Assembly: GCF_037902255.1 (NCBI RefSeq)
Contig: NZ_CP147990.1
Span: 840,001-872,000, forward strand
Length of the DNA stretch: 32,000 nt
Direction: 5' to 3'
From: Candidatus Electrothrix sp. GW3-4
GTDB lineage: Bacteria > Desulfobacterota > Desulfobulbia > Desulfobulbales > Desulfobulbaceae
Part shown: positions 8,044 to 27,666 of the stretch, piece by piece
How positions within the stretch are numbered: position 1 is the stretch's first letter
Layout: each line of letters begins with the position of its first letter
Made by a program: the position numbers and the translations under genes
The notes under the pieces: model-generated
The model's database searches: none
The model's input: only the letters and a program-made list of their open reading frames with translations
What the model was told of the DNA's origin: nothing

Positions 8044-9441
8044 GTGAAACAAAGCATAATTATCGTTATCGCCCTTTGTCTGCTGGCGGCCCCAGGTCAG
8101 ACAAGGGAAATGGCAAAGACAGGGCGCTATGATCTGGCTCAGATTGAGCTGCTGGATGTCGAAACGGCGCAACGGATAGCCCTGCAGGATAATCCAGGGC
8201 TTGGGGCTGCCCAGGCTCGTCTGGAACAGGCAAGGGCTGGCTTGCAACAGGCTGTTGCGGCTGATAAACCCCGTGTTGATGCCAATGCTTCAACCGGCCT
8301 TGGCCGCTACTCGGATACTAATTATGACTCGCTCATTCTCTCAGATTCATCTGCTGACCAAAACTACGAGGCTGGTTCCCTGGCCTTGCAGGCATCATGG
8401 CTCCTGTTTGATGGCTATGCCCGGAAATTTCAGCAGGAACAGGCGCGGTACGGGGTTCAGTCCTCTGATGAGAGTCGCAGAAACATCCAGCGCCTCTTGG
8501 TCTCTGCTGTTGCCGATGCCTTTTTTCATGCCCAGCTGGCCTTGGCCGCCATTGAGATAGCAACGGCTAATAAGGCGTTTTATGAACGACAATTGCAGGA
8601 TGCAGAGAGTCGTCTTGAGGTGGGCAGTGGCTCGCTAAGCGATGTGCTGAATATGAAGGTCCAGCTTAATTCGGCCCAAAACAGTCTGCTGATCAGTCAG
8701 CGGGATTATGAGGCGGCCCGCTATGCCTTGGCTGCTCTCTTGGGAATTGCCGATTCTGTCTTGCCGAAAACGATACAGCTGGCTGCGCTGGATAAGGATT
8801 GCGATATCTTTGCTGATAAGGGGCTGACCGATGGGGAGAAGCTGATTGCTGAGGCCTTGCAGGCACGCCCTGATCTTACGGCCTTGGCTATGCAGATCAA
8901 AGGCGCAGAATCCGCTATTGAGCAGGCCAAGGCTGGCAACTGGCCCACTGTACAGCTTGTTGGTCAGCTAGATGGTAGCACGACGGATGGCCTGGCACCG
9001 GGTGGTGAGGATTTGGGGGCATCATTAGGGGTGAACGTGAGTTGGAATCTCTATTCCGGCGGGGCTGTGGATGCTGCTGTCCTGGAGGCCCGTCAGGCCA
9101 AAAGAGAGGCTCGCTATGCCTATGCTGATCTGCGTAATAGTATCGCTGCTGAAGTGCAGCAGGATATCGTTCGGCTGGCAGCGGCCCGTGAACAGGTTCG
9201 CCTGCAACGCGAAACCGTGGAACTGGTTGAAGAGAACCGTAAGCTGGCAAAGAGTGAATATGAGGCAGGCTCGGCCTCTCTTGTTCGACTCAATGAGGCT
9301 CAGCGTGATCTAACCGCCACCTATGGTCAGCTGGCCCAGGCCCTTGTTTCCTATCAACAGGCCCGGCACCAGCTGCTGGCTGCTGTTGCGCGTAATCTGG
9401 AGCCCTTTTCTCTTGCTGATAAGTCGCAACCGGCAAAATAA
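8044..9441 (+). CDS. TolC-family outer-membrane efflux protein
   Basis: GTG start with GGGAGAG 5 nt upstream and signal peptide MKQSIIIVIALCLLAAPG. The two-repeat helical/OEP architecture has typical segments (LLFDGYARKF, YSGGAVDAAVLEARQAKREA, YEAGSASLVRLNEAQRDL). Confidence 0.85.
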   Translation: MKQSIIIVIALCLLAAPGQTREMAKTGRYDLAQIELLDVETAQRIALQDNPGLGAAQARLEQARAGLQQAVAADKPRVDANASTGLGRYSDTNYDSLILSDSSADQNYEAGSLALQASWLLFDGYARKFQQEQARYGVQSSDESRRNIQRLLVSAVADAFFHAQLALAAIEIATANKAFYERQLQDAESRLEVGSGSLSDVLNMKVQLNSAQNSLLISQRDYEAARYALAALLGIADSVLPKTIQLAALDKDCDIFADKGLTDGEKLIAEALQARPDLTALAMQIKGAESAIEQAKAGNWPTVQLVGQLDGSTTDGLAPGGEDLGASLGVNVSWNLYSGGAVDAAVLEARQAKREARYAYADLRNSIAAEVQQDIVRLAAAREQVRLQRETVELVEENRKLAKSEYEAGSASLVRLNEAQRDLTATYGQLAQALVSYQQARHQLLAAVARNLEPFSLADKSQPAK

Positions 9442-9503
9442 TAATTTTTTTGACAACGCCCCCTTTTTTCAACCTGTAATTCTTTTCTTTGAGAACCTGC
9501 TTG

Positions 9504-11855
9504 ATGAACCCTCTTGATCTTATCGGTAATACTCCTCTTGTCTCGTTGCAGAGAATGTGTCCTGCAGGCGCTGGAGAAATCTATGCGAAGCTGGAATGCA
9601 TGAATCCTGGTGGTTCGGTCAAAGACCGGCCAGCCTTGAACATGATTGAGGTGGGTGAGGAGAGTGGAGAACTGACACCAGATAAGATTATCCTGGAGGC
9701 CACCAGTGGCAATACCGGCATCGGCCTGGCTATGGTCTGTGCTGCCAAGGGATACCGTTGTCAGCTCATCATGCCGGAATCTGCCAGTATCGAACGACGA
9801 CAGATCATGCGGGCCTATGGGGCAGAGATTATCCTTACCCCGGCTGCCCGTTCCACAGACGGTGCTATTGAAAAGGCCTATGCCCTGGCCCGTGAATATC
9901 CTGACCGTTATTTTCTCACGGATCAATTTAATAATCCAGCCAACTGGCAGGCCCATTATCAGAGCACGGGCCCGGAGATCTGGGAGCAGACAGAGGGGAA
10001 AGTTACCGATATTATCACGACCTTGGGGACCTCAGGCACGGCTATGGGGCTCTCTCTCTGGTTTCGGGAACATCATCCCTCGGTGCGGGTCATAGCGGTG
10101 GAGCCCTACTTTGGTCATAAGATTCAGGGCTTGAAGAATATGAAAGAGTCCTATAAACCCGAGATTTTTGATAAGTATCTCCCCCATGAAGTTGTCAATG
10201 TCCAGGATGAGGACGCCTTTCGTACTGCCCGTTTGCTGGCTCGGCAAGAGGGGGTTTTTGTGGGGATGAGTTCCGGTGCTGCCATGTTTGCCGCGATGGA
10301 ACAGGCCGTGAAGGAGAAGGAGAGCTATGTGGTGGCTATCTTTCCAGACGGGGGGGAACGGTACCTGAGTACCCCGCTCTTTATTCGCAAGGAGAAACAG
10401 GAAGGCAAGGAGCGGCAACTCTGTCTGTACAATACCATCACTCGCAAGAAAGAAGCCTTTAAGCCGCTGCATGAGGGCAAGGTCACCTTTTATGCCTGCG
10501 GGCCTACCGCCTTTGAGGCACCTAACCTCTCTCATTGTCGCCGCTTGGTAGTTGCTGATCTGATGATCCGCTACCTTCAGTTCAAGGGCTTTGAGGTAGA
10601 ATCTATTATGAATTTTACCGACCTTGACGATAACACCATTGTCGGGGCAGAAAAGGCCGGTGAACCGCTGGCTGAATTTACGGATAAACATATCTCCCAG
10701 TTCCGTGAGGCGATCAATTTTCTCGGCATCAACGATTTCTCCGGTTATCCCAGGGCCTCGGAGCATGTTGGCGACATGATTGAAATCGCCCATGAGCTGA
10801 TCCACAAGGGCTTTGCCTATGAAAAACACGGATCAATCTATTTTGATATTTCCAAGTTCGGTAAATACGGGCAGCTCTCCGGGGTTGATCTGGGCAAGAT
10901 CCAGGTGGGACACACAGTGGACCTGGATGATTATGAAAAAGGGAATCCTCGAGATTTTACCTTACTGAAACGTTCTACTCTGGGTGAGTTGAAAAAAGGT
11001 GTTTTTTACGAGACAGACTGGGGTAATATCCGTCCGGGCTGGCATATTGAATGTACGGCCATGTCCACCCGGTATCTGGGCGAGACCATTGATATCCATA
11101 CCGGCGGGCAGGAACTGCTCTTTCCCCATCATGAAAATGAGAACGCTATTGCTGAGGCCCTGGCCGGAAAACCCCTGGCCAATTATTGGCTTCATTCAGG
11201 CTTGTTGCTCAAAGATGGCAAGAAAATGTCTGCGGAAGCAGGGAATGAGGTCACCCTCCAGGAGGCGATGGAGAAAGGGTATAGCGGGCGGGAAATCCGT
11301 TTTATGCTGCTTGGGGTCCATTACCGAAAATCCATGCATTTTACCTATAAAAAGCTCAATGCCATCCGCAAGGCCTTAAAGAGAATTGACGAGTTTACCC
11401 GAAAGCTGGGCTGCCTGCATCCAGGGCTCCCGCATCCGGTCATTGGCTCGTTGGTTGGGGAGCTGGAGAATCAAGTTACGAGTGCCTTAGATGATGACCT
11501 GAATATTTCCGGTGCAATTGGTGCGTTGTTTGATTTTATCAAAAAGGTCAATCCCATCCTCTACGCGGGCAGTCTGGATCTGGAGCAGAAAAATGAAATT
11601 TTTGCGCTCCTGCGAAAAATGAATCGGGTTTTCGGATTTCTCCGTTTAGAGCAATGTATCTTGGCCCCGGAAATCAACCGGCTGATTGAACAGCGGGAAG
11701 AGGCCCGTCGCCGTCGCGACTGGGCTGCTGCGGATATGGCCCGGACTGAGCTCCTGCAAAAGGGCATCATTGTCCATGATACGGCAAATGGGCCAGTTTG
11801 GGAGCAGGATGAGGCATGTAAGGTTTGTGAGAATGCCACTGGAAATGAACGTTGA
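9504..11855 (+). CDS. Fusion protein: PLP-dependent cysteine synthase (CysK/CysM-like, ~300 aa) + cysteinyl-tRNA synthetase-like domain (~480 aa)
   Basis: One uninterrupted frame. The track starts at TTG 9489; ATG 9504 is more likely. The N-terminal part has NPGGSVKDRPA (PLP lysine), TSGNTGIGLA and LGTSGTAMG. After the linker RKEKQEGKERQ the sequence is collinear with E. coli CysRS (LYNTITRKKEAFKP, ACGPT, GWHIECTAM, HTGGQELLFPHHENENA, RRRRDWAAADMAR..GIIVHDT). Confidence 0.85.
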   Translation: MNPLDLIGNTPLVSLQRMCPAGAGEIYAKLECMNPGGSVKDRPALNMIEVGEESGELTPDKIILEATSGNTGIGLAMVCAAKGYRCQLIMPESASIERRQIMRAYGAEIILTPAARSTDGAIEKAYALAREYPDRYFLTDQFNNPANWQAHYQSTGPEIWEQTEGKVTDIITTLGTSGTAMGLSLWFREHHPSVRVIAVEPYFGHKIQGLKNMKESYKPEIFDKYLPHEVVNVQDEDAFRTARLLARQEGVFVGMSSGAAMFAAMEQAVKEKESYVVAIFPDGGERYLSTPLFIRKEKQEGKERQLCLYNTITRKKEAFKPLHEGKVTFYACGPTAFEAPNLSHCRRLVVADLMIRYLQFKGFEVESIMNFTDLDDNTIVGAEKAGEPLAEFTDKHISQFREAINFLGINDFSGYPRASEHVGDMIEIAHELIHKGFAYEKHGSIYFDISKFGKYGQLSGVDLGKIQVGHTVDLDDYEKGNPRDFTLLKRSTLGELKKGVFYETDWGNIRPGWHIECTAMSTRYLGETIDIHTGGQELLFPHHENENAIAEALAGKPLANYWLHSGLLLKDGKKMSAEAGNEVTLQEAMEKGYSGREIRFMLLGVHYRKSMHFTYKKLNAIRKALKRIDEFTRKLGCLHPGLPHPVIGSLVGELENQVTSALDDDLNISGAIGALFDFIKKVNPILYAGSLDLEQKNEIFALLRKMNRVFGFLRLEQCILAPEINRLIEQREEARRRRDWAAADMARTELLQKGIIVHDTANGPVWEQDEACKVCENATGNER

Positions 11856-11918
11856 TTTATCTTTCGTTCCGCAGTATAATATTGCAGCTTTCTTGGAGAG
11901 CAGAATGATGAAGTATAT

Positions 11919-11995
11919 GCGCCAATAGCTCAGCTGGATAGAGCAACGGCCTTCTAAGCCGTAGGTCGCAGGTTCGAATCCTGCTTGGCGTACCA
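11919..11995 (+). tRNA. tRNA-Arg (anticodon UCU), encoded CCA
   Basis: Hand-folded cloverleaf. Acceptor GCGCCAA/TTGGCGT has a G1-U72 wobble. D arm GCTC-AGCTGGATA-GAGC; anticodon arm ACGGC-CTTCTAA-GCCGT with TCT at positions 34-36; T arm GCAGG-TTCGAAT-CCTGC. Discriminator is A, followed by CCA. Confidence 0.9.
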
Positions 11996-12012
11996 TATAT
12001 ATCAGGGAGTTA
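11945..12012 (+). repeat. attL: tRNA 3' half plus about 17 nt flank
   Basis: aacggccttctaagccgtaggtcgcaggttcgaatcctgcttggcgtacca is identical to 27470-27520. Similarity continues through tatatat..caggg[a/g]gtta. Confidence 0.85.
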
Positions 12013-12039
12013 AGCTGTACAGCTTGACTCCCTGTTTTT
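12003..12039 (+). terminator. Rho-independent terminator after tRNA-Arg (island-supplied)
   Basis: 14-bp stem cagggagttaagct / agcttgactccctg (one G-U pair), loop gtac, then TTTTT. Confidence 0.75.
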
Positions 12040-12262
12040 GTTTCCCCAGCACTATCCCCAGCAGATGAACGGATTTTCGGTTTATCTGTCCCAGCAGAGC
12101 AAAGCGCAAACCACCCGAAAATTTTTTTCGGGGTACTTTTCAGTTTTCTTTTTTCGGGAGAACAACAGCCGTGAAAAAGGCTACCTGTCGTTATGTGAGG
12201 GGCTGACTTTCAGGCAGGGAGAGGGGAAACACAGAAAGCGAGCTGATAGCGTGCGGATTGCG

Positions 12263-12766
12263 TCATTCTCCGTTCCGGGTTTCTTCCAGAACAAAGCGAA
12301 CGTCCAGGTTTTTCAGCATGGTGAAACAGTCGGTATAATCGACCTCAAATTCATGGCAGACATTGGGGATGAGGATTTTTCTCTTTGCCTGCGGGTTGTA
12401 TGCCTCATGGGTTACAACAATACATCCGTGGACTTTGGCAAAGGCTATCAGCCACGGGTCGGCCCCTGAAAGGAAATGTTCAGCTACGCGCTGACTGTGA
12501 TTCTCCACCGCATAGCTGGCAATTGATCTGAAGATTTCCTGAACAGTGGGTTCCGTCACCTCGGCAAAGAAATGAGAGCCTTTTATCTCTTCAGCCCAAT
12601 CTTTCAATTCATCGTTGCCGTTCTGAAGCTCTTCCAGAACAGGAGAAATAGAACCCACTGTCCCGACCCGAAAGACAAGCCAGTCCCAGAAACCGGGGCA
12701 GATAGAAAAATGGTAGTGAGCATTTTTGGCCTGAATAAATACGTTGCTGTCCAGACAGTAATCCAT
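12263..12766 (-). CDS. DUF4411-family (PIN-like) protein
   Basis: 167 aa, MDYCLDSNVFIQAKNAHY... The acidic-residue pattern and length are as I recall for DUF4411. The start lies 1 nt after the stop of the upstream ImmA/IrrE gene, which is the usual partner. Confidence 0.7.
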   Translation of the reverse strand: MDYCLDSNVFIQAKNAHYHFSICPGFWDWLVFRVGTVGSISPVLEELQNGNDELKDWAEEIKGSHFFAEVTEPTVQEIFRSIASYAVENHSQRVAEHFLSGADPWLIAFAKVHGCIVVTHEAYNPQAKRKILIPNVCHEFEVDYTDCFTMLKNLDVRFVLEETRNGE

Positions 12767-12767
12767 A

Positions 12768-13943
12768 TTATTTTCCTGTCAGAAAGTCCGCATATTGTTT
12801 CAGGCCAGCCGGTTTGACCCCCAGCAGAGAACCGGCATCCCGCAACAGCAGTCTTCCTTCAAGGGCCGCAGCCGCCACAGCTTGGGAAAACAGGTTGCCG
12901 TTTCTGAACTTGCGCATGGTGTCGGACTTGGGGCCGCCTGCACTTTCAGCTAATTTATTTTTCTTCTTTTGGTCATAGTGGACAGCCTGCCAATAAAAAT
13001 CCTGCAACGTATCATAGGGCAACACGTCCAGATCGTATCCACGCCGGGCAATAACCAACTGACTGACCCGGTACTGTTGAGCAAGCAGGGCAATATTGTC
13101 CTGTGCCGGAATCTCGCTGTTCCAATCAGTCAGAAATTGCGCTTCAGGAACCAGCACCTCCGCAGCCGTCCTGTTGCAGAAGGTTTCCACCTTCTTTCCA
13201 CGTTTGCCTTTTTTCTCTTTATTCAGCTGAGGGTTGGAAACTCCGCTCTGTCCGATCCAGAGATGAACCAGCTCATGGGCAAGGGTGAAGATTTGCGCGG
13301 ATTTGGCATCACGGGAATTGATAAAGATGAGCGGTGCCACCGGGTCGCTGAGGGCAAAGCCCCGGAACTCATCAACGGACAGCGGGCGGTGGGTGTTGTT
13401 GCCGACAATGGAATTGCGCATGACAAGGATACCGGCATCCTCGGCCTGTTCAATCAGGCAGGTGATGAACTGTTCCCAATTTCGGGCGGAACTGCGGACC
13501 TCATCCACAGACAGCACCTGCCGTATATCCGCTGCTACCACCCGGTAATCATCTGTTACGGAGTAGTTGCCGATAAAGGGCAGCGGCTGTACTCCCTCCT
13601 GCATACGGTATTCCCGGAACCAGTCCTGTTTCCGCAGAATATCGTTGTACAGATCAAGAAATTCAAGGCTGAAACCGGGCATGGTTCTGCTGCCAACAGT
13701 CCGCAGGTCGGGTATATCCGGTTCCTGTTTCGGCGGGGCAGGCAGAAAGAAGTACCCAAACGGCACATGGAATGCCTTGGCAAGGAGTTGCGCCTGTCGG
13801 AAGGTCGGTCTTTTTTGGCCTTCCTCCCAAGCAAGGAACTGCTCTGGACGCACCTTTACCTTATGCGCAGCAGCATCCGTGCTGAACTGCGCCCGTTTTC
13901 TTGCCCAACTGAGCACATGCGGGGTAATAAAGGCTTCAGGCAT
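12768..13943 (-). CDS. XRE-HTH + ImmA/IrrE-family zinc metallopeptidase
   Basis: 391 aa. It has an N-terminal HTH (RPTFRQAQLLAKAFHVPFGYFFL) and a central HEXXH motif (LAHELVHLWIG) in an ImmA/IrrE-like context. Confidence 0.8.
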   Translation of the reverse strand: MPEAFITPHVLSWARKRAQFSTDAAAHKVKVRPEQFLAWEEGQKRPTFRQAQLLAKAFHVPFGYFFLPAPPKQEPDIPDLRTVGSRTMPGFSLEFLDLYNDILRKQDWFREYRMQEGVQPLPFIGNYSVTDDYRVVAADIRQVLSVDEVRSSARNWEQFITCLIEQAEDAGILVMRNSIVGNNTHRPLSVDEFRGFALSDPVAPLIFINSRDAKSAQIFTLAHELVHLWIGQSGVSNPQLNKEKKGKRGKKVETFCNRTAAEVLVPEAQFLTDWNSEIPAQDNIALLAQQYRVSQLVIARRGYDLDVLPYDTLQDFYWQAVHYDQKKKNKLAESAGGPKSDTMRKFRNGNLFSQAVAAAALEGRLLLRDAGSLLGVKPAGLKQYADFLTGK

Positions 13944-14090
13944 GGTGTATCAACCTGTTCGTATTTTTTGCGGGTTTTGTCGTGTCACACAAATATACTA
14001 CCCGATTTTGCATGATATGGAAACGGGGTTCACTGTGAGGAAGGTATTCTTTTGCGCTGTGTTACAACGGATCATCCGGGCACCGGGTCG

Positions 14091-14258
14091 CTGAAGAAAC
14101 GCTTCAGCTCCACCTGTGCCTGTCCTCATGTATACAAAAAGCTGTTTTCCTATACACGGCAACCTGTTCATGTATAGAAAAACGCATTTTCTTTACATGT
14201 ACCGCATCCGAGCGGAACTGCCCAAGCTGTACAGTCAGGATTTATTGAACAATCTCTT
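14091..14258 (+). repeat. Copy of non-coding junction + start of Fic C-terminal fragment (partner 27667-27834)
   Basis: 168 nt align colinearly with 27667-27834 at roughly 85-90% identity by eye, including ...catgtatac..cctatacac..catgtatag.. and ..gcggaactgcccaagctgtacagtcaggattta.tgaacaa. Confidence 0.8.
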
Positions 14259-14279
14259 GCCCGAAGTATACTCCACACC

Positions 14280-14720
14280 GGGGCCAAGGCTGACCGCCCC
14301 GGCCTGACTGATGCCTTAAAATACGTCCGTGAAGGGGATTGCCTCGTTGTCTGGCGGCTGGATCGTTTGGGCCGCAGCCTGAAGCATCTGATTGAAGTTG
14401 TGGAAGGCTTAGAAGAGCAGGGAACAGGCTTTATCAGCCTTCAGGAAGGATTCGACACCACCACCAGCGGCGGCAGGCTGGTCTTTCAGATCTTCGGGGC
14501 CTTGGCTGAATTTGAAAGAAACCTGATCCGGGAAAGGACAAAAGCCGGGCTGGATGCGGCCAGGGCCAGAGGGAGGAAGGGCGGCAGAAAGGTGAAGCTG
14601 AAGCCTCAGCAGATTGCCGCCCTGAAAACTATGTATGAGAGTAAGGCGCATACTGTTGATGAGGTATGCGCTGTGTTTGGGATTAGTAAGCCGACTTTGT
14701 ATCGGTATTTGGAGATGTAG
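14280..14720 (+). pseudogene. Serine recombinase (Hin/resolvase family) remnant R1, lacking N-terminal catalytic-Ser region
   Basis: The in-frame translation GAKADRPGLTDALKYVREGDCLVVWRLDRLGRS...FGALAEFERNLIRERTKAGL...HTVDEVCAVFGISKPTLYRYLEM* matches residues ~60 to the end of small serine recombinases. The sequence upstream is the Fic fragment, so there is no N-terminus. Confidence 0.8.
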
Positions 14721-14723
14721 GGT

Positions 14724-15002
14724 TCACGCAACAGCCAGCCGGCACCCCAACGCCTTGACCACTTTGCTGACCGTAGAGAATCTCGGGTTACCTTCCCCGG
14801 CAAGGGCTTTATACAGGCTTTCACGGTTCAGCCCGGCCTTTTTGGCTACCTCGGTCATACCCTGTTTTTTGGCCAGATACCCCAAGGCGACAAGAAAAAC
14901 CTTGGGATCATCATCCATATAGGCGTTGTTCAGGTACTCGTTGACCTCTTCTCTTGTTTCCAGATAGTCGAACGGGTTGTAGGGTTTTGTTGTAAGTTTC
15001 AT
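14724..15002 (-). CDS. HigA-family antitoxin (addiction module antidote protein)
   Basis: 92 aa. FDYLETREEVNEYLNNAY.., GMTEVAKKAGLNRESLYKALAGEGNPRFSTV..KALG is the typical family pattern. It overlaps the upstream toxin gene by 4 nt. Confidence 0.8.
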   Translation of the reverse strand: MKLTTKPYNPFDYLETREEVNEYLNNAYMDDDPKVFLVALGYLAKKQGMTEVAKKAGLNRESLYKALAGEGNPRFSTVSKVVKALGCRLAVA

Positions 15003-15307
15003 GACTCTTCTTCCCCCAGTTGTTTGACCATGTTTTTTGCCTTTTTTATGTCCCTTTCCTGGGTCGATTTATTACCGCCGCAGAGCAGGAGGATAATCCG
15101 ACCGTCCTGGATCACGTAATACAGGCGATAACCCGGCCCGACAAAGATACGCATCTCGCTGATTTCGCCGCCGACCGACTTAACATCGCCGAAGTTGCCC
15201 AGCTTTGCCCGGTCGAGACGAGCGGCCACGGCGAGTACCGCTTTGCGGTCACGCAGTTTCTTCAGCCACTTGTCGAAAGCGGGCGTGGTTTCTATTTCGT
15301 AGATCAG
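14999..15307 (-). CDS. HigB/RelE-like addiction module killer protein (start codon uncertain or lost)
   Basis: Family homology extends upstream of the track's GTG (15229): ..LIYEIETTPAFDKWLKKLRDRKAVLAVAARLDRAKLGNFGDVKSVGGEISEMRI.VGPGYRLYY. Only CTG (15307) or ATC (15304) sit where the ATG is expected, and an in-frame stop lies at 15338-15340. Confidence 0.6.
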   Translation of the reverse strand: MIYEIETTPAFDKWLKKLRDRKAVLAVAARLDRAKLGNFGDVKSVGGEISEMRIFVGPGYRLYYVIQDGRIILLLCGGNKSTQERDIKKAKNMVKQLGEEES

Positions 15308-15383
15308 GGGTATTTGTAGCCTGTGAGCTACGGTTTGTCAAGGGGAAGGGAATGTTTGTTGATTGATCGGAGTGGGGCGGGTT

Positions 15384-15627
15384 GATCTTCGGGGCATTGG
15401 CTGAGTTTGAACGGAATCTGATCCGGGAGCGGACAAAGGCCGGGCTGGAAGCAGCCAGGGCCAGAGGGAGGAAAGGCGGCAGAAAGGTGAAACTGAAGCC
15501 TCAGCAAATCGCCGCCCTAAAAACTATGTATGAGAGTAAGGCGCACACTGTTGAGGAGGTATGCGCTGTGTTCGGGGTTAGTAAGCCGACATTATATAGC
15601 TATTTAAAAACTCAGAAAATTGAGTAA
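15384..15627 (+). pseudogene. Serine recombinase remnant R2 (C-terminal about 80 aa incl. HTH)
   Basis: IFGALAEFERNLIRERTKAGLEAARARGRKGGRKVKLKPQQIAALKTMYESKAHTVEEVCAVFGVSKPTLYSYLKTQKIE*. It aligns with R1 from 14497 on, at about one nt difference in ten. Confidence 0.8.
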
Positions 15628-15652
15628 AACTATACAAAATATAAGGCTTCTT

Positions 15653-16243
15653 TTATTCATTAGGACATTCATCCGAAGCCGCACTACATAACCCTGTTGT
15701 GCGGCTACAGAATTTATCATCCCAATTATAGCAAGCATCACTTCCATTTGGGCCAGCATCTTTCTTACAACATCTTCCATTAGAAAATTTAATACCATGT
15801 TCCTTTAGTATTAATTTCGCTGCTGCTATATCTTTCATCGTTATAACTTTTTCTTTTTTATCTTTTGTTGAAATTTTTATTTTTTCAGACGAATTAGATG
15901 GTTTCGGGATCTTCATTGCTATAGATAAAAGTTCCAGTGAATCTTTCAATTCACTATTACCTACAATCTTCTCGTCTTCATACCACCTACAATGTAGATG
16001 CCCTTCACATACTGTTTGATTCTTAATATCACTACATTTATTTGCCGTTCCATAACATCCATCAACTACACCGCTACTAGATGAAACATAGGTGCATCCA
16101 CTTTGTTTTATACATTGATCATAATTAGAAATATCTCTGCAAGACAAATTCCACCCCGCACATTCACCCGCAAAAACAAAAGATGGGGTTACAAAAAAAT
16201 AACACAGTATCATTCCAACTAAATATGTTTTTTTCATTTTCAT
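15653..16243 (-). CDS. Secreted cysteine-rich protein A (unknown function)
   Basis: 196-aa ORF in an AT-rich segment. AGGAG lies just upstream, and spacing favours ATG 16237. Signal peptide (MK)MKKTYLVGMILCYFFVTPSFVFA. The mature part has 14 Cys in two clusters separated by a K/S-rich linker. Confidence 0.65.
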   Translation of the reverse strand: MKMKKTYLVGMILCYFFVTPSFVFAGECAGWNLSCRDISNYDQCIKQSGCTYVSSSSGVVDGCYGTANKCSDIKNQTVCEGHLHCRWYEDEKIVGNSELKDSLELLSIAMKIPKPSNSSEKIKISTKDKKEKVITMKDIAAAKLILKEHGIKFSNGRCCKKDAGPNGSDACYNWDDKFCSRTTGLCSAASDECPNE

Positions 16244-16336
16244 CTCCTATTATTAATATAAAATTAATTACCGTTTGTCCTATACACAGATTACCCTTAT
16301 GGGGTAACAATAATGCAATGGTATTCGAAGCACATC

Positions 16337-16696
16337 CTATAAAGTTTTTCGGACGATTAATGGATAATCACTCGAAAAATCAGATATACCTCCGCATGAT
16401 GCACTTGGGGATGAATCGCAAGTAAAATTACAAGCTTCCCCTGTTAAAGAACAACATGCTGAAGCAGCCTCCCCAGTCTCATTATTTCTAATAATACAAA
16501 GTCTGTCTCCAGAACAGGATGGGTCTCCACTTGCACTAACATATGTGGTACATTTATCAATAAATGATGACTTAAAAGATACTGTTTTTTCTACCTTATC
16601 CGATTGTTTTTCTTTGTTTTGTGCCGCTGCTAAATGATTTGAAAGGAAAAAAGCAAAAACAAAACAAACCATTACTCTTGTAACATTTTTTTTCAT
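16337..16696 (-). CDS. Secreted cysteine-rich protein B (unknown function, paralogous motif to protein A)
   Basis: The start at 16696 is preceded by GGGAGGGG. Signal peptide MKKNVTRVMVCFVFAFFLSNHLAAA. The mature part has 8 Cys. It shares C-T-(T)-Y-V-S-[SA]-S-G and a CC doublet with protein A. Confidence 0.65.
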   Translation of the reverse strand: MKKNVTRVMVCFVFAFFLSNHLAAAQNKEKQSDKVEKTVSFKSSFIDKCTTYVSASGDPSCSGDRLCIIRNNETGEAASACCSLTGEACNFTCDSSPSASCGGISDFSSDYPLIVRKTL

Positions 16697-16854
16697 ATCC
16701 CCTCCCTTGTTTATTTTTTTACAATTCATTTTCTACACTAGGTCATAAGTATATCAGTAATTTTTTTTTGTCAACGTATTATAACTATTGATAATAATTA
16801 ACACTCCCATTTTAAAAGAAATAACGAAAAACAGAAATCGTTATTTCGTTCCCC

Positions 16855-16996
16855 CCTGATCCGGGAACGGACAAAGGCCGGGCTGGAAGCGGCCAGGGCC
16901 AGAGGGAGGAAGGGCGGCAGAAAGCTGAAGCTGAAACCTCAGCAAATTGCCGCCCTGAAAACCATGTACGAGAGCAAGGCGCATACTGTTGAGGAG
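16855..16996 (+). pseudogene. Serine recombinase remnant R3 (internal fragment)
   Basis: LIRERTKAGLEAARARGRKGGRKLKLKPQQIAALKTMYESKAHTVEE. It is truncated at both ends and finishes 6 nt before the hsdR stop codon. Confidence 0.8.
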
Positions 16997-17002
16997 TTCA
17001 GC

Positions 17003-20000
17003 TCACCCCGCAGCAGTCAACTCATCAGCGATTTTTTCCGCCTGTTGCAGCACGGTTTCCGTGGCCAGTTTCTGCATATCAGGCGGGTAGCCGTATTTTC
17101 GCAAGGTGCGCTTGACCAGTACCTTGAGCTTTGCCCGCACATCCTCTTTGATGGTCCAGTCAATAGAGGCATTAGCCCGGACCTTCTCGGTCAGCACCAC
17201 GGCCAGTTCCCGCAGTGTGTCTTTCTTCATCAGCTCAACCGCGCTTTCATTATTTGCCACTGCGGTATAGAAGGCATATTCAAAGTCGGTCAGGCCCATG
17301 TTCTCGGCTTCCTGATCCTTTGCTTTCATATCTCTGCCAATGTTTATCAGCTCTTCAATCACTTCAGCAGCAGTAATGATTTTATTATGATAGCGTTTAA
17401 TGGAGTCTTCAAGCATCTCCATCAGGCTGTTGCTCTGGACCAGGTTTTTTTTGGCCCGGGCCCGGATTTCATCGTTGAGCAGCTTTTTCAGGACTTCCAG
17501 GGCAATATTTTTATGTTCCATCTCCCGGATTTCCAGCAGGAATTCTTCGGAAAGAATGGAAATATCCGGTTTCTTTATTCCGGCTGCATCAAAAATATCT
17601 ATCATCTGATGGGAAACAAGGGCCTGGTCAATGACCTGCCGGATCACCGCTTCCCGTTCCTCATCGGTCCGGCCTTGGTCTGTAGCGGAAAACTTGGCCA
17701 GCCGGGCCTTGATGGCCTGGAAAAAGGCCACCTCATCCTTGCAATCCAGGGCCTGTTCATGGGGAACAGCAAGGGCAAAGGCCTTGGACAGGGCCGCGAC
17801 TTCATCCATGAATCGTTTTTTGCCGTTTTCCAGGTGCAGGATAAAATCTTCCGCTGCCAGGATCAGGGAAAGCTTTTGTGAGGTGTCAGCGGCAAAGTAT
17901 TCCTCATAGGCAAAGCCGTGCAGCATCTGGGAGACGATTTCCAGTTTCTCCAGGAGCAGAGCAACGGCCTGTTCCTGCTCAACTGCCGGATCCCCCTTGC
18001 CGCCGCTGTCCGCATAAAAGGACAGGGCCTTTTTCAGATCCGAGGCAATGCCCAGGTAATCCACCACCAGGCCGCCCGGTTTATCCCCATAGACCCTGTT
18101 CACCCGTGCAATGGCCTGCATCAGGTTATGGCCCTTCATGGGCTTATCAATGTACAGGGTATGGAGGCAGGGCGCATCAAAGCCGGTCAGCCACATATCC
18201 CGGACAATAACCAGCTGTAAGGGATCATCAGGATTGCGCATCCGTTCTGCCAAGGCCCGCCGTTGTTGCTTGGTGGTGTGGTGCCTGGCTATCTCCTCCC
18301 CGTCTGAAGAGGCTGCGGTCATCACCACCTTGATGGTTCCCTTTTTCAGGTCGTCATGGTGCCAGTCCGGTTGCAGGGCGATGATTTCCCGGTACAGATC
18401 CGCAGCGATCCTGCGGGACATGGCTACAATCATACCCTTGCCCTGAAAGACCTCCTGCCGCTGCCCGAAATGGCGGACAAGATCCTGAGCAACATTTTTC
18501 ACCCGTTCCCGGCTGCCGATCAGGGCTTCAAGCTGGGTCCATTTGGCCTTGGCTTTCTGGGTTTCAGAAAGGTCTTCCCGGTCCAGTTCATCATCCAGTT
18601 CCTGAACAAGCTCCCGGCCTTCTTCGCTCAGGGTGATCCTGGCCAGCCTGCTTTCATAGAGGATCGGGACCGTGCTGCCGTCCTCAATGGCCTGGGCAAT
18701 ATCATAGATGTCCACATACTCCCCGAAAACAGCCGGGGTGTTCACGTCGCTGCTTTCAATGGGGGTACCGGTAAAGCCCAGATAGGTGGCCTTGGGCAGG
18801 GCGTCCCGCATGTACTTGGCAAAGCCGTACACCGTCTTTTTGCCGATGATTTGCCCCTGTTCGTCCTTGTCATCAATGGTCTTGGCCTGAAAGCCGTATT
18901 GGGTCCGGTGAGCCTCATCAGCAATGACCACAATGTTTTCCCGGTCAGAAAGCTGCTCATAGACATTGCCCTGTTCCGGCTGAAACTTCTGGATCGTGGT
19001 AAAGACCACCCCGCCGGAGGCCACCTGCAACAGGGCTTTCAGGTGCTGCCGGTCTTTGGCCTGGACAGGTTCCTGGCGGATCAGCTGTTTTGCAGCGGCA
19101 AAGGTATCAAAGAGCTGGTCGTCTAGGTCGTTTCTGTCCGTGATAACCACCACCGTGGGATTGTGCAGGGCAAGGACAAGTTTTCCCGTGTAAAAGACCA
19201 TGCTCAACGATTTACCGCTGCCCTGGGTATGCCAGACCACCCCGCCCTTTCTGCTGCCGTTGCTTGCACTGGCTTTAATCGTACTTTCAACCGCTTTATT
19301 GACCGCATAATACTGATGATAAGCAGCCAGCTTTTTCACCGTTTGGATACTGGTTAACCCGGTTTTGGGGTCTTCACTCTTGGACTGCTCAAAGACGATG
19401 AAATGGCGGATCAAATCCAGCAGAGTTTTCCGGTTCAGCATGCCGGTAATCAGGGTTTCCAGCTGGCTGATTAAGGGAGAGGCCTCGGTTTTGCCGTCTG
19501 CGCTCTTCCAGGTCATAAAACGGCTCAAGCCTGCGGACAGGGAACCGGCCCGTGCTTCCAGGCCGTCAGAGATGATCAGGATTGCGTTATAGGTGAACAG
19601 GGAAGGGAGCGTTTTTTTATAGGTGCCGAGCTGACGAAAGGCAGATTCAATGGTGGCCTGTTCATCAGTGGGATTCTTCAATTCAACGACCACCAAGGGC
19701 AGACCGTTGACAAAAAGGACAAGATCCGGGCGTTTTTCTTTGTTCTTTTCTGTGGCTGTGAACTGGTTGACCACGAAAAATTCGTTATTTTCCGGCTTGT
19801 CAAAATCAACCAGCCAGATGATTTCGCCCCGGTCAATGCCCTCCTTGCGCACGGTCACCTTGACCCCTTCAGTCAGCAGGCTGTGAAATTCTTTGTTGTT
19901 GCTGATCAGGTCCGGGGAATGGATGCGCTCAACCTGGTTGAATGCGTCTTCTTGGGCGTTGTGGGGGATGTCCGGGTTCAGGCGGCTGATTGCTGAACGA

Positions 20001-20143
20001 AGGGTTGCCGCCAGCAGGTATTCATCAAAGCTGTTGCGGAGGGGAGTTTTACCGTTCGGGGCAATGTTCGGGCCGTAGAAGTATTGATAGCCCAGGGGCT
20101 GAAAGCGTTCTATGGCGAGCTGTTCTATTTCTTCTTCAGTCAT
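17003..20143 (-). CDS. hsdR: Type I restriction enzyme, R subunit
   Basis: 1046 aa with Walker A HTQGSGKS, DEAH box VIADEAHRTQ, helicase C motifs (FTGTP, QAIARVNR) and a typical HsdR N-terminal nuclease region. It overlaps hsdS by 8 nt. Confidence 0.95.
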   Translation of the reverse strand: MTEEEIEQLAIERFQPLGYQYFYGPNIAPNGKTPLRNSFDEYLLAATLRSAISRLNPDIPHNAQEDAFNQVERIHSPDLISNNKEFHSLLTEGVKVTVRKEGIDRGEIIWLVDFDKPENNEFFVVNQFTATEKNKEKRPDLVLFVNGLPLVVVELKNPTDEQATIESAFRQLGTYKKTLPSLFTYNAILIISDGLEARAGSLSAGLSRFMTWKSADGKTEASPLISQLETLITGMLNRKTLLDLIRHFIVFEQSKSEDPKTGLTSIQTVKKLAAYHQYYAVNKAVESTIKASASNGSRKGGVVWHTQGSGKSLSMVFYTGKLVLALHNPTVVVITDRNDLDDQLFDTFAAAKQLIRQEPVQAKDRQHLKALLQVASGGVVFTTIQKFQPEQGNVYEQLSDRENIVVIADEAHRTQYGFQAKTIDDKDEQGQIIGKKTVYGFAKYMRDALPKATYLGFTGTPIESSDVNTPAVFGEYVDIYDIAQAIEDGSTVPILYESRLARITLSEEGRELVQELDDELDREDLSETQKAKAKWTQLEALIGSRERVKNVAQDLVRHFGQRQEVFQGKGMIVAMSRRIAADLYREIIALQPDWHHDDLKKGTIKVVMTAASSDGEEIARHHTTKQQRRALAERMRNPDDPLQLVIVRDMWLTGFDAPCLHTLYIDKPMKGHNLMQAIARVNRVYGDKPGGLVVDYLGIASDLKKALSFYADSGGKGDPAVEQEQAVALLLEKLEIVSQMLHGFAYEEYFAADTSQKLSLILAAEDFILHLENGKKRFMDEVAALSKAFALAVPHEQALDCKDEVAFFQAIKARLAKFSATDQGRTDEEREAVIRQVIDQALVSHQMIDIFDAAGIKKPDISILSEEFLLEIREMEHKNIALEVLKKLLNDEIRARAKKNLVQSNSLMEMLEDSIKRYHNKIITAAEVIEELINIGRDMKAKDQEAENMGLTDFEYAFYTAVANNESAVELMKKDTLRELAVVLTEKVRANASIDWTIKEDVRAKLKVLVKRTLRKYGYPPDMQKLATETVLQQAEKIADELTAAG

Positions 20144-21242
20144 AGCGTACTCTTACCTCTCCGCTCATGAGTTTGGGAAGTAGGGTATTGCGGAGGTTTT
20201 CGAGGGTGCGGATTTGTGCGGCATTATTTAGAATCTTGAAAAAAATTGGAGAAATTTCTTTCTCAAAATTTATAATCTCTTTTTCTAACGGGACAGTTAC
20301 AGAGTGTTCTTTGAATGTTTTGGTCGTGATAGTGTCAAAAACACTGCCATATGCCGCGCTGATGAGTTGGTCCACAACATTTGCCACAAGCAGGTATGTA
20401 AAAAAATAACAGTCCTGATACTCGGGAATGATTCCGTAATTTGATTGGCTGAAAGCCATATTCTCCGCCAAAATAGCATATTTTCCAACAGTGCCTCTTG
20501 CGGAAATGATCGTGCTGAATTGAGGCAAAATTTTTGTTGAGCTGTTGTTTAACCCTTCAGTTGTTATTGTTTTTTCTGTCGATAAAACAATACTTTTGTG
20601 ATTAGGCGTTATATCTTTTGCTGAAAGCCAGCCTATATCACCATTCCAGTATTCATCAATAGACGTTTTCGGAGTCCCGCCGCCTATCAGCTTGATGCAG
20701 TCGTATAAGGATTTTTCCTCCCAATCATCCTCCGCCTCTTCAATAAACCACTGCCTGAACAGCGTTTCCGCCATTGCCTCAAGGGTTTTATTCTGGCGGT
20801 GGAGCAGGTCTATTTTGTCATCAAGACAGGATAGAGTCGAAGCTATGGCTTTTTGTTCGGGGAGCGAAGGAAGTAAAACATTTTCTTCATGAACATCATT
20901 TCGATTTATACCTGGAACCGCGCTTTTATCATTAAATTTTTCCCAATTTATCCCCTGAAGAAAATAATAAACAAAGAACTCGTTGTTATTTTTAAAATTT
21001 TCAACATACAATGTCGTATTAAGCGGCCAGTAGGCTTGCTGGGCTAAAAAAACTTTTCCTATTGTTCCATAGCGACCGGTTATAACACCAACACCTTCTA
21101 CTTTTGACTTATTGTGGAATCCTGAAATTCCCGATGATGAAAAAATTGGAATATCTCCATTCTTTCTTAGTCGTTTTGGTAAATCGTAACCACGTTTTAA
21201 GTTTAACACTTCCCCGAGCTTACATTCCTTCCACTCACCCAT
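20136..21242 (-). CDS. hsdS: Type I restriction enzyme, S (specificity) subunit
   Basis: Two target-recognition domains are separated by the conserved spacer [15 protein letters not shown], with a C-terminal [17 protein letters not shown]. The start [12 protein letters not shown] at 21242 overlaps the hsdM stop. Confidence 0.9.
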
Positions 21243-22779
21243 CAACAACCACCTTTGCCAACTTTTCAGCAATCACCCCATTCAACCGCTCTTCCTCCTG
21301 CAACTGCTCTGCAAACTCCGCCTGCAAGGCCGTAAAACGCTCCTTAAAATCAAAATCATCCTCTTCCGCAGCCAAACCTACGTATCGGCCCGGTGTGAGC
21401 ACATAGCCCAGTTCTGCCACCTCCTCGACCGCAGCGGATTTACAAAACCCTTTCACATCCTCATACCCGCCGTCCGTATTACGCCATCCATGATAGGTTT
21501 CCGTAATCATGCTTATATCCTCATCGGAAAACTCCTTGGTGCGCCGGTTGATCAGGTGGCCCATGTTGCGGGCATCAATGAACAGGATTTCATCCAGCCG
21601 GTTTCTGAATTTGCCGTTGGCCCTGTTTCGGCTGAGAAACCATAACGAGGCCGGGATCTGGGTATTGAGAAAGAGCTTAGGCGGAAGATTGACAATGCAG
21701 TCAACCAACCGGGCTTCCACCAGGGCCTTGCGTATCTCCCCTTCACCGGAGGTATTGGAGGTCAGTGCCCCCTTTGCCAGTACAAAACCGGCCTGTCCTG
21801 TGGGGTTGAGGTGATAGAGGAAGTGTTGAATCCAGGCATAGTTGGCATTGCCGCTGGGCGGTGTCCCGTACTTCCACCGTCCATCTTTGCGCAGCTGGTC
21901 CCCGCTCCAGTCGCTGTCATTAAAGGGCGGATTGGCGATCACATAATCAGCCTTCAGATCCTTATGGCCATCATTGAGAAACGAGCCCTCGTTGTTCCAC
22001 TGTACCTGAGAGCTTTCTATATGCCGGATAGCAAGGTTCATCTTGGCCAGCCGCCAGGTTGTCCGGTTGCTTTCCTGGCCGTAGATGGAAATATCATTGA
22101 TCCGGCCCTGATGCTCCACCACAAACTTTTCTGATTGGACAAACATGCCCCCGGATCCGCAACAGGGATCAAGCACCCGGCCCTTGTAGGGCTCCAGCAT
22201 TGCAACCAGCAGCTGCACCACCGAGCGGGGCGTATAGAACTGGCCCCCTTTTTTGCCTTCAGCAAGGGCGAATTCACCAAGAAAATATTCAAACACATGG
22301 CCCAGCACATCAGCGCTGCGGGCCTTGGCATCCCCTAAGGCAATATTGCCGATCAGATCAATCAGACCGCCCAGGGAGGCCGGGTCGAGCTGCTGCCGGG
22401 CATAGACCTTGGGCAGCACCCCCTTGAGGGAGGGATTTTCTTTTTCAATGGCATCCATTGCCGTGTCCACGTCCTTGCCGATCTCGGGCAGCTTGGCCCG
22501 CGAAAGGAGATGAGACCAGCGGGCCGTTTGCGGGACAAAGAAGACGTTTTCTGCTGCGTATTCATCCTTGTCTTCCGGGTCTGCTCCTTCATATTCCCCT
22601 TTCCCGGCAACAAGCTTGCTGTGCAGGTTTTCAAAGGAATCAGAAATATATTTCAAGAAGATCAGCCCTAACACAACGTGCTTATACTCTGCTGCATCAA
22701 TATTTTTGCGAAGCTTATCTGCGGCCTTAAAGAGCTGTTTTTCTATGGGTTCATCAGTCTTTTTTTTCTTTTTTGCCAT
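21235..22779 (-). CDS. hsdM: Type I restriction enzyme, M subunit (N6-adenine DNA methyltransferase)
   Basis: 514 aa with the HsdM N-terminal domain ([11 protein letters not shown]), an AdoMet motif ([11 protein letters not shown]) and the catalytic NPPF ([12 protein letters not shown]). Confidence 0.95.
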
Positions 22780-23033
22780 GTGGATATGGTTTCCCGGTTC
22801 TATGCTCTCCGGGAACGGTATTTTTATATGAATGTTTGTGGTATGGGAAAGTATCCTACGGTCTTAGCATAGCAGGAGGAAAGGTGCAATATGTTCAGCA
22901 GGAGAATTCTACAGAAGCTTTTTTTTGAGCTATAAAGTTTCCATAGTCTCCCAGCAGCTTTTCAGAGGCTCCTGGAAAAGTTTGAAAGAATCATACGGGT
23001 GTCTGAGCAGTGATAAACGATTCCAACATATTA

Positions 23034-23084
23034 CAAACCCACAGGGGGGTGGGTTTGCCCGTGGGTTTGCCTGTGGGTTTTCCC
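23034..23084. repeat. GTGGGTTT repeat array (1 inverted + 3 direct at 12-bp period)
   Basis: aaacccac (23035-23042), then gtgggtttgcc at 23049, 23061 and 23073 (the last reads gtgggttttcc). It lies 255-305 nt upstream of the hsdM ATG. Confidence 0.7.
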
Positions 23085-23252
23085 GTTTGACAAGGGATTA
23101 TACCTGACAACCAGGGTATATCAGGCGGGTGTTTCGCTGTCTCCGGCCAGCCGCTCCGCCTTGATCCTTTGCCATTTCCCCCAGCTCTCCGGGCTGCTGA
23201 CCGGGCGGGTTCAACTTGCCCCGGTCACCGGAAACAATCTCCCGTATTTCTT

Positions 23253-23528
23253 TCACACAACCTCAATACGAAGCGTTTTCCCGAACGCCTGCGCAAACTT
23301 CGCCAGCGTGGACAGCTTCACATCCTGTGCATGGTTTTCAATCCGGGAGACAGCGGTTTTCTTGGTATGCATCTTTTCCGCTACCTGCTCCTGTGTCATC
23401 CCGGCTTCTTCCCTTGCCGCTTTGAGCATGGCCCCTATTTTGAAGTCCTGATACCCGGCTTCATAGCCCTCTGCAAATTCAGGGTCACGGGCCTTGCGTT
23501 CCTTGATGTAGGTCTGTAATTTTTTCAT
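23253..23528 (-). CDS. XRE-family HTH antitoxin (HigA-like)
   Basis: 91 aa. HTH GMTQEQVAEKMHTKKTAVSRIEN. It overlaps the upstream toxin gene by 4 nt. Confidence 0.8.
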   Translation of the reverse strand: MKKLQTYIKERKARDPEFAEGYEAGYQDFKIGAMLKAAREEAGMTQEQVAEKMHTKKTAVSRIENHAQDVKLSTLAKFAQAFGKTLRIEVV

Positions 23529-23878
23529 TCCGTTTTCCTCCTGAAATAGTCCTTCTTTCTGGCCTCGGCTGTTTTTATATCCCGCTTCGGTGTCTTCTGC
23601 GTTTTCTTCTGAAACGCATGATCCAGAACAATGAGCTTCTGGCCGTCAAAGAAACCGAGCAGGCGGAAAATGTTATTGCCTGCGCCAACCCGCACTTCCC
23701 ATATATCATCTGTGCTGACAAGTTTCTTGAGATAGTTGGTCGGGACAGTGGGCAGCTCTTCAATCAGCTCCAGCACCCATGCCACTTTGCGGGCCTGCTG
23801 TCCTGTCAGTGAATCCAGAAACTCTTCAACAGGGCATTTTCCCGATGCGGTTTCGTACAATATGATTTCTCGTTTCAT
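23525..23878 (-). CDS. RelE/HigB-type toxin (phage Gp49-like family)
   Basis: The start at 23878 (MKREIILYETASGKCPVEEFLDSL...) is typical of the Gp49-like family (..IWEVRVGAGNNIFRLLGFFDGQKLIVLDHAFQKKTQKTP). The gene order is toxin first. Confidence 0.8.
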   Translation of the reverse strand: MKREIILYETASGKCPVEEFLDSLTGQQARKVAWVLELIEELPTVPTNYLKKLVSTDDIWEVRVGAGNNIFRLLGFFDGQKLIVLDHAFQKKTQKTPKRDIKTAEARKKDYFRRKTE

Positions 23879-24757: not shown

Positions 24758-24778
24758 TATTGAACCTCTATTACCGGG

Positions 24779-26125: not shown

Positions 26126-26165
26126 ATAATCTATGATCCTTTCCTTTGTTCTTCGGGTAAACTTG

Positions 26166-27567: not shown

Positions 27568-27666
27568 ATTCCCCACCGTATTCCCCGCCGTATTCCCCAC
27601 ACTTTGTCTCGTTTTCGTTTTTTTGTGGGGAGTAATGCCCGCCGAAAAACTTCCTTCAACAACACC

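Follow-up and report, generated by a model that had tools for sequence, protein, structure and literature searches.

Resolvase genes and their sites are well-known seams between the modules of plasmids and of Tn3/Tn21-type elements. Variable regions of cargo, defence genes among it, are typical of tRNA-integrated islands and phage satellites, and in an IS26-like geometry a copy might in principle be excised as a loop along with its cargo and be inserted again at a different copy. In the Tn3 family, toxin-antitoxin (TA) pairs are reported to adjoin res site I, immediately upstream of the resolvase gene and on the other strand, a position which they gained independently several times (Lima-Mendez et al. 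2020, PMC7157771). In this study, we describe three truncated copies of a resolvase-type gene, R1, R2 and R3, in a stretch of 32,000 nucleotides (nt) from Candidatus Electrothrix sp. GW3-4 (contig NZ_CP147990.1, positions 840,001 to 872,000; hereafter the window). These copies look like resolvase scars left by ordinary mobile-element mosaicism and not like the trace of a new cassette system or mechanism. We regard it as probable that they arose by fusion of replicons followed by deletion, and that the segment 14278-16854 arrived ready-made from a plasmid similar to our contig L183.

The three fragments are arranged as follows.

14278 to 14720, plus strand: R1, a resolvase pseudogene with residues ~36 to the end and its own stop codon; its 5' end is the junction between an incoming block and the backbone of the surrounding island.
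15382 to 15627, plus strand: R2, a resolvase remnant with residues ~106 to near the end; homology to other alleles covers 15384-15605/15610.
16855 to 16996, plus strand: R3, an internal resolvase fragment with residues ~117-163, truncated at both ends.

A repeat search across 13000-18500 gave one family of direct repeats with three copies, at 14489-14710, 15384-15605 (90% identity) and 16822-17043, where identity over the whole frame is 68% and the real overlap of the third copy is limited to 16855-16996. MAFFT alignment and tblastn identify R1, R2 and R3 as same-strand pieces of one small serine-recombinase gene. With a full-length homologue of 185 amino acids (aa) as query, tblastn recovered residues 36-181 in R1 (14277-14714), residues 107-183 in R2 (15385-15615) and residues 114-167 in R3 (16844-17005). 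The Pfam model Resolvase (PF00239) is matched only at positions 44-145 in R1 and 116-145 in R2, in both cases together with the helix-turn-helix (HTH) domain HTH_7 (PF02796; E-values 1.7e-9 and 2.4e-8), while R3 ends short of the end of the HTH domain in the alignment. In terms of the gene, the 5' limits lie at positions 107 (R1), 318 (R2) and 351 (R3), and the 3' limits at the natural stop, ~10-15 nt before it and ~50 nt before it, respectively. The catalytic N-terminus with the serine nucleophile is missing from all three alike, as an initial annotation of the stretch, made from the letters alone, had stated. Judged by sequence, the fragments derive from genes of the small serine recombinase family but do not encode working recombinases, and tblastn with the full-length homologue found no intact serine recombinase within the window. 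There are no in-frame stops in R1, R2 or R3, and R2 retains the stand-alone open reading frame (ORF) of 81 aa reported for it, from a TTG at 15382; its tail continues into DNA of low guanine-plus-cytosine (GC) content. In GenBank, R1 is a 138-aa 'recombinase family protein' (WYD86337, our P0291) with a CTG start. This entry should carry a pseudogene flag, since the catalytic N-terminus is missing. Scans of the remnants for terminator, promoter or RNA function stayed at chance level, and Rfam matched tRNA only. In the view favoured here the fragments are dead gene pieces. Each is followed by a different module on the opposite strand, R1 by the TA pair HigBA, R2 by a pair of cysteine-rich (Cys-rich) genes and R3 by the type I restriction-modification (R-M) operon hsdRSM, whose hsdR stop codon (17003-17005) lies 6 nt past R3. 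This arrangement, too, had been described correctly.

R1 and R2 differ at 24 of 222 nt (89.2% identity), and 20 of these differences fall at third codon positions; at the protein level there are 4 aa changes in 74. The nonsynonymous (dN) and synonymous (dS) rates are 0.024 and 0.53, which gives a dN/dS of 0.045. Over 141 nt R1 and R3 are 92.9% identical, R2 and R3 91.5%, with the same third-position pattern. The DNA divergence of about 10% with nearly identical residues, as given in the initial annotation, is borne out by the alignment, except that the residue changes between R1 and R2 number four in 74 instead of three. Because the differences are biased towards third positions and dN/dS is low, R1, R2 and R3 are three separate alleles that diverged under purifying selection while they were functional, and not the result of a recent triplication, in line with the earlier interpretation. 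Nothing but the presence of repeats speaks for collapsed or wrongly joined repeats in the assembly, and the likelihood of such an artefact is negligible. Two Logan short-read contigs, L088 and L089, both of which end inside repeats, repeat the order R1 end, HigA, R2, Cys-rich pair and R3 start at 99.8-100% identity, and the HigA-R2-Cys segment is spanned at 100% by independent Logan contigs. Moreover, a difference of ~10% between the copies is too large for mis-collapse, and the same architecture was found in four unrelated metagenome samples. Since independent contigs reproduce the order from R1 to R3, an assembly artefact, which had been named as a possible refutation, does not account for the fragments.

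Full-length homologues, 182-185 aa long, are numerous. At the protein level the nearest one (94%) is found on a 5.1-kb contig (L001) with a Rep3 initiator and ParDE, and the nearest to R1 at the DNA level (94.3%) on 21-26-kb contigs from four JGI samples (L183-L186). L183-L186 have their gene order in common with a circular plasmid (36.7 kb) of Desulfocapsa sulfexigens, and the recombinase of this plasmid gave the best match in the plasmid database (76%). Matches in this database are annotated as recombinase, tniR resolvase or transposon DNA-invertase. The source gene of the fragments is a small serine recombinase (resolvase/invertase type, ~182-185 aa) of a Desulfobulbales plasmid family. The search for a full-length recombinase and its flanks, which the initial annotation had proposed as a check, was hence successful on plasmid-like contigs, and some of them also carry a palindromic candidate site upstream of the gene. 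In the plasmid database only the resolvase and, weakly, HigBA are matched, and no plasmid there has the block 14278-23177. By tblastx of the whole island against all plasmid-like loci, the resolvase is the only thing in common. A scan of GTDB-representative genomes, which do not include the source genome, gave with R1 a best match of 79% identity, and partial copies were rare among 80 loci. Exact-pattern scans of metagenome and viral contigs for the conserved gene core gave zero matches, and a metagenome scan with the 74-aa C-terminal part gave only matches of at most 72% identity, 70 of which cover the full-length gene. The partial metagenome matches lie mostly at contig ends; 2-3 internal 5'-truncated copies break near residue 86.

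The plasmid-like contigs L183-L186 carry, in this order, a full-length resolvase gene, 25 nt of spacer, an HTH/RelE pair on the opposite strand that has a strong promoter-like site, a resolvase copy without its 5' part and a low-GC gene pair. In L183 the truncated copy (8605-8835) is 92.5% identical to the full copy of the same contig and its ORF is intact with 97 aa. This stack has the same architecture as R1-HigBA-R2-low-GC in the window, and because it is already present on L183-L186, the stacking probably took place on plasmids. Stretches of ~30% GC, 1.2-1.5 kb long and with two opposite-strand genes, follow the 3' end of the resolvase gene in L002 and L003, of the truncated copy in L183 and of R2 in the window. 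A resolvase 3' end that abuts a low-GC opposite-strand gene pair is a native type of unit. The low-GC genes downstream in L183, L002, L003 and L001 have no mutual protein similarity, and the polarity of insertion is not readable from them. In L001 a truncated resolvase copy stands directly after the parE stop, and the 3' end of the rep gene of this contig is present a second time in diverged form (87%; 1937-2076 versus 3751-3890). The two remnants together indicate that L001 arose when two related small plasmids fused and parts were deleted. Copies with replaced, missing or shortened N-termini exist in further assemblies (P0122, P0081, P0127, P0317 and P0322).

The full-length genes in L183, L002 and L003 are preceded by a conserved region of ~130 nt, which contains a 70-nt palindrome (CGGTAAAGAAAC...GTTTCTTTACCG, inner arms AATAATCAAAG...TTTGATTATT), at 6773-6841 in L183, ~1850-1915 in L002 and ~1280-1348 in L003. 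The palindrome stands just upstream of the gene and after a terminator-like hairpin. We take this region as the candidate crossover site. Nothing in the window corresponds to it, and a search there for resolvase-site half-sites gave 5 matches against 2.3 expected, a number reached by 9 of 100 shuffled sequences.

Compared with the described resolvases of plasmids and transposons (TnpR/ParA/TniR type), the source gene has the same domains (PF00239 and PF02796), the same length of 182-185 aa and, when complete, the same position after a palindromic site. Unlike in the mosaics of such elements, the breaks here fall inside the coding sequence and not at the crossover site, there is neither a transposase nor a set of terminal inverted repeats, and the fragments are chromosomal, in an integrase island. 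The TA pairs of Tn3-family elements have their likeness in HigBA, which is directly upstream of and opposite to R2, and in the RelE/HTH pair upstream of the L183 remnant. Here, however, the stretch from the TA promoter to the resolvase remnant has lost the res site and ~105 codons at the start of the gene, and in L183 a second, full-length copy stands on the other side of the TA pair. Transposase domains were absent from the ORFs scanned with Pfam and no inverted repeats bracket the region, so that neither TnpA nor the terminal repeats of a Tn3 element were found. The likeness to IS26 arrays and translocatable units is one of analogy only, in that directly repeated copies alternate with cargo that differs from one interval to the next. 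The repeats here are defunct gene pieces of 142-443 nt with ~90% identity and longest perfect matches of 23-36 nt; any movement would need host homologous recombination, and none was observed.

A succession of fusions and deletions could produce such a series. Replicons with different alleles of the resolvase gene would fuse in direct orientation, either by homologous crossover in the shared gene or by the resolvase acting at its site. Fusions of this kind would normally be resolved again, and their persistence would require deletion of the second crossover site. Since the crossover site sits just upstream of the gene, the deletion would also remove the 5' end of the gene and would extend as far as the next function under selection, for example a cargo promoter or stop codon. 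Repeated rounds would give a full gene, cargo, a 5'-truncated copy, further cargo and so on. R3 and hsdRSM would have been joined by separate illegitimate events. The model would account for direct orientation, constant loss of the 5' end, compact modules from promoter to stop and allelic divergence; all three copies in the window are indeed in direct orientation, as fusion by recombination predicts.

The fragments lie inside an integrated island, the parts of which are listed here.

11919 to 11995, plus strand: tRNA-Arg(TCT), the integration target (ARAGORN; Rfam tRNA, 74.7 bits).
11945 to 12002, plus strand: left island boundary, a 58-bp direct repeat over the 3' part of the tRNA (k-mer comparison, offset 15525).
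12263 to 13943, minus strand: backbone pair of DUF4411 (12263-12766) and ImmA/IrrE-HTH (12768-13943) genes (Pfam; 91-96% nt identity in sister islands).
14090 to 14277, plus strand: backbone fragment homologous to 27666-27846 (alignment), interrupted at 14277 by the incoming block.
14278 to 23177, no strand assigned: mosaic block of 8.9 kb, in place of the ~4.7-kb cargo (HepT/MNT and others) of sister islands.
22890 to 23177, no strand assigned: unassigned right end of the block, in which a tandem repeat of 12 nt stands at 23049-23086.
23253 to 23914, minus strand: backbone TA pair of Gp49 toxin (23525-23914) and HTH_3 antitoxin (23253-23528) (Pfam; 96-97% nt identity to sister islands).
26166 to 27311, minus strand: tyrosine integrase of the island (PF00589, E-value 2.5e-33; exact protein WYD85114).
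27470 to 27527, plus strand: right island boundary, second copy of the 58-bp repeat (k-mer comparison).

The island measures 15.6 kb, stands at tRNA-Arg and also encodes an AlpA-like HTH protein. It has what a tRNA-integrated island has, a tyrosine integrase and repeats of the tRNA 3' end at both ends, and because the second tRNA repeat lies 15.5 kb away beside the integrase, the fragments are placed inside it. Related islands occupy the same locus in E. communis (L084/L086), in E. rattekaaiensis Rat3 (L179) and on one metagenome contig (L178). By blastn the Rat3 island is collinear with the window at 11915-14277 (95.6%) and 23178-27615 (95.9%), with no match between these segments, where it continues differently beyond 14277. 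The alignment puts the right junction of the block at 23177/23178, and backbone homology restarts at 23178. None of these three sister islands holds a resolvase fragment. Their cargo differs from island to island within the same limits, 14277 and 23178 of the backbone, and the variable interval is filled with HepT/MNT, with pieces of a type I R-M system or with hsdRSM plus TA. Since the sister islands match the backbone on both sides, as far as 14277 and again from 23178 on, without any resolvase, 14278-23177 came in as one replacement, and with a single 8.9-kb replacement the 5' break of R1 is the outer junction of the block.

The initial annotation had seen in this locus a hotspot at which each newcomer, a recombinase with its cargo, recombined with the resident recombinase gene. 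Serial accretion in situ, with these events in the chromosome, would fit the direct orientation and nested shortening of the copies, their three distinct alleles and the variability among islands of the DNA that separates the ImmA gene from the Gp49/HTH pair. We nevertheless consider it unlikely, as a resolvase fragment or an intermediate is found in none of the three sister islands, R1 is broken exactly at the outer edge of the block as a whole, the layout R1-TA-R2-low-GC exists already on plasmid-like contigs, and the relatives of HigBA and hsdRSM are unlinked to the resolvase. What holds of the proposal is that stacking with loss of the 5' end recurs on L183-L186 and L001, and that cargo varies between 14277 and 23178 in homologous islands, as a survey of them had been expected to reveal; the island as the hotspot is not supported, the sister islands being without fragments and those junctions without remnants. 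In its integrase, AlpA-like HTH, tRNA-repeat ends, conserved backbone and single variable interval the island resembles the variable cargo regions of other tRNA islands and of phage satellites. The exchange of cargo is not tied to the resolvase fragments, though; these occur in only one of four islands.

Next to the island we noted further repeats. A longer copy of the fragment preceding R1 lies beyond the right island repeat (27666-28018 versus 14090-14277) and comprises a conserved upstream stretch with TCATGTATA(C/G)AAAA repeats and then an ORF; its part 27666-27846 covers this upstream region and the start of the ORF, which encodes a Fic C-terminal domain (27692-28018, SoFic-like_C, 8e-24). 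This suggests that a second element, now decayed, has left remains beside the island in tandem arrangement. A 12-nt tandem repeat at 23049-23086 (GTGGGTTTGCCC, 3.2 copies) stands ~90 nt left of the right junction of the block, and another at 27567-27600 (TATTCCCCACCG, 2.8 copies) 40 nt past the end of the right island repeat (27527).

The cargo between and beside the fragments consists of the following features.

14724 to 15002, minus strand: higA antitoxin gene (PF21716, 7e-28; its 90% cluster is present in many Electrothrix genomes).
14999 to 15307, minus strand: higB toxin gene of the Gp49 family (PF05973).
15313 to 15341, minus strand: promoter-like TTGACA-17-TACAAA of higBA with a GTAGC/GCTAC inverted repeat (alignment).
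15345 to 15383, no strand assigned: junction spacer of 39 nt, with GGAG 9 nt before the TTG of R2.
15606 to 16854, minus strand: low-GC (~32%) block with two Cys-rich ORFs, 15653-16243 and 16337-16729 (composition; hydrophobic N-termini).
17003 to 22779, minus strand: type I R-M operon of hsdR (17003-20143), hsdS (20136-21272) and hsdM (21235-22779) (Pfam).

HigBA is a type II TA pair, with a Gp49/HigB-type toxin gene followed by an HTH antitoxin gene (PF05973, PF21716/HTH_3) in one operon. The module extends over 14722-15344, from the stop codon to just upstream of the -35 box, and beyond 15344 homology to other genomes is lost. Copies with 83-84% identity to this module stand in TA arrays of several other Electrothrix chromosomes, where no resolvase is nearby. 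The start codon of higB (15305-15307) is CTG here and ATG in four other Electrothrix copies (alignment with L091-L093). As the start codon is CTG, expression of HigB is uncertain, and the toxin may be silenced or weakly translated here; promoter and higA are intact despite this. In other Electrothrix (L090-L097) the same HigBA stands in long arrays of PIN, ParE, HigB, BrnT and RelE pairs, with neighbours that vary by genome. The low-GC block of 1.25 kb encodes Cys-rich proteins of 196 and 130 aa without Pfam domains. With one partial homologue among 5.8 billion proteins these are essentially orphans. HsdRSM has the domains of a type I R-M system, N6_Mtase and HsdM_N, Methylase_S in two matched stretches, and in hsdR HSDR_N, SWI2_SNF2 and T1RH-like_C, the last up to model position 328 of 329. 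Except for the hsdS recognition domain, the operon is 87% identical at the nt level to a chromosomal operon of E. communis that has no resolvase; homology covers 17016-22889, beginning 13 nt inside the 3' end of hsdR and reaching 110 nt into the DNA upstream of hsdM. In hsdS, the DNA of 20877-21224 finds no match in the E. communis copy, which fits a swapped recognition domain, and the E. communis hsd copy is interrupted by an integrase/IS91-type insertion. Units of recombinase and cargo, as postulated in the initial annotation, do exist (in L002, L003 and L183 and after R2), but a native pairing of this kind does not apply to HigBA and hsdRSM; in the window, only R2 with its low-GC pair forms a native-type unit of a remnant and the module that follows it.

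Several points weigh against the account by fusion and deletion. A fusion intermediate, in which plasmid backbone would separate two full copies, was not found, and neither was a plasmid with HigBA or hsdRSM beside this resolvase, the known relatives of both being chromosomal and without resolvase. Close relatives were sampled through a few dozen contigs only, and the genome and metagenome scans reached at most 79% identity. The truncated copy of L183-L186 and R2 start at the identical base (GATCTTCGGGG), although they adjoin different TA modules, which is unexpected if deletion end points are random; the identity requires either common descent of the junction or selection. For common descent of the DNA upstream of the two copies the alignment score is 16 against a shuffle mean of 12.6 and is reached by 187 of 2000 shuffles (p ~0.09), which is not significant. 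Finally, 5' breaks cluster at residues 106-120, in 4 cases at the DNA level and in up to 7 of ~13 overall, a total that includes protein-only copies whose true break points are uncertain. A simple model of fusion and deletion does not account for this clustering. Since the internal breaks in the wider family lie near residue 86, the cluster at 106-120 is not general to that family.

One possible source of the clustering, compatible with fusion and deletion, is cleavage of incoming plasmid DNA by GATC-specific double-strand cuts, with limited nibbling and illegitimate joining. The gene has four conserved GATC sites, at nt 97, 190, 318 and 354 (in the window 14361, 14489 and 14525), and most of the break points, 107 (R1), ~184 (P0081), 318 (R2 and L183), 351 (R3) and 359 (L001), are within a few bases of them. 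This pattern was spotted after the fact in 4-5 events, R3 and P0081 retain 3-6 nt upstream of the site, unlike after a simple cut, and P0122 and P0127 do not fit, so that we give the idea only a slim chance.

The identical start of R2 and of the L183 remnant could also mean that the R2-type copy is a working small DNA-binding gene beside TA promoters, whose product binds resolvase sites or regulates neighbours. In both contexts, with different TA modules, TT precedes the same 5' base and thereby creates the TTG start, and GGAG stands 8-9 nt upstream; both ORFs are intact (81 aa in R2, 97 aa in L183), dN/dS between the two is 0.05, and the short copies P0127, P0317 and P0322 start within a few codons of the same point. 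This reading is doubtful for several reasons. No promoter-like site was found upstream of R2 or of the L183 remnant, the low dN/dS may be a legacy of full-length alleles or be renewed by recombination with these, and the two copies do not group in a tree. R2 has an R-to-S change in the otherwise invariant LYRYL of its HTH, P0322 has R-to-W and G-to-D changes, half-sites in the window are not above chance, and the starts of the protein-only examples depend on gene callers. A working R2 could coexist with fusion and deletion as the explanation of R1 and R3. In a more specific form, to which we likewise assign a low probability, the R2-type copy would be a maintained entity of 81-97 aa (end of the long helix, arm and HTH) with a fixed start, placed between a TA promoter and low-GC cargo and acting as a mobile unit or as a binder of resolvase sites. 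In the first case, the full-length gene and the R2-type copy would bracket the TA pair as direct repeats of ~230 bp, and the bracketed unit could enter any related resolvase gene through host recombination and carry its boundary along. Alternatively, the R2-type protein might occupy resolvase sites of plasmids and, for example, disturb the resolution of plasmid multimers from within a defence island.

The recurrence of the R2/L183 boundary and the position of cargo between direct repeats might further be taken as signs of a dedicated site-specific cassette system, integron- or shufflon-like, which uses a site inside the resolvase gene. Such a system is very improbable. The three 5' junctions in the window lie at three positions and the 3' junctions differ as well, no common flanking motif was found at the window junctions, 13000-18500 contains no other repeat families or attC-like elements, and an intact serine recombinase is missing from the window. 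Compact promoter-to-stop modules stacked in series are reminiscent of an integron, but no IntI-type integrase stands beside the array (the island integrase is 9 kb away) and the modules are of mixed orientation. The absence of attC-like repeats from 13000-18500 refers to the repeat search, in which the other repeats were short two-copy matches, no dedicated attC model having been run. The new cassette mechanism envisaged in the initial annotation is not needed to explain the locus, as the three 5' junctions differ and have no motif in common and the likely crossover site is gone from the window.

With fusion and deletion as the preferred explanation, part of the cargo of a cable-bacterium island is identified as plasmid-derived, and uncultured Electrothrix populations are linked to a little-described plasmid family of the Desulfobulbales. 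It also offers a testable reason why resolvase scars keep their 3' ends, namely that fused replicons would be stable only once the upstream crossover site has been deleted. The locus is a well-documented case of mosaicism in an uncultured lineage. If the R2-type start proves to be selected, a DNA-binding protein derived from a resolvase would join the genes that travel with TA modules.

Outside the island, two genes of the window have unusual domain compositions. A single ORF of 788 aa (9489-11855) fuses a pyridoxal-phosphate-dependent (cysteine synthase-like) domain to cysteinyl-tRNA synthetase, a fusion which is kept as a 783-aa gene in E. communis and Rat3. At 2046-4526, a protein of 826 aa with a ubiquitin-conjugating-enzyme (E2-like) domain (2e-7) is encoded, and its gene is kept at the same place in other Electrothrix genomes.

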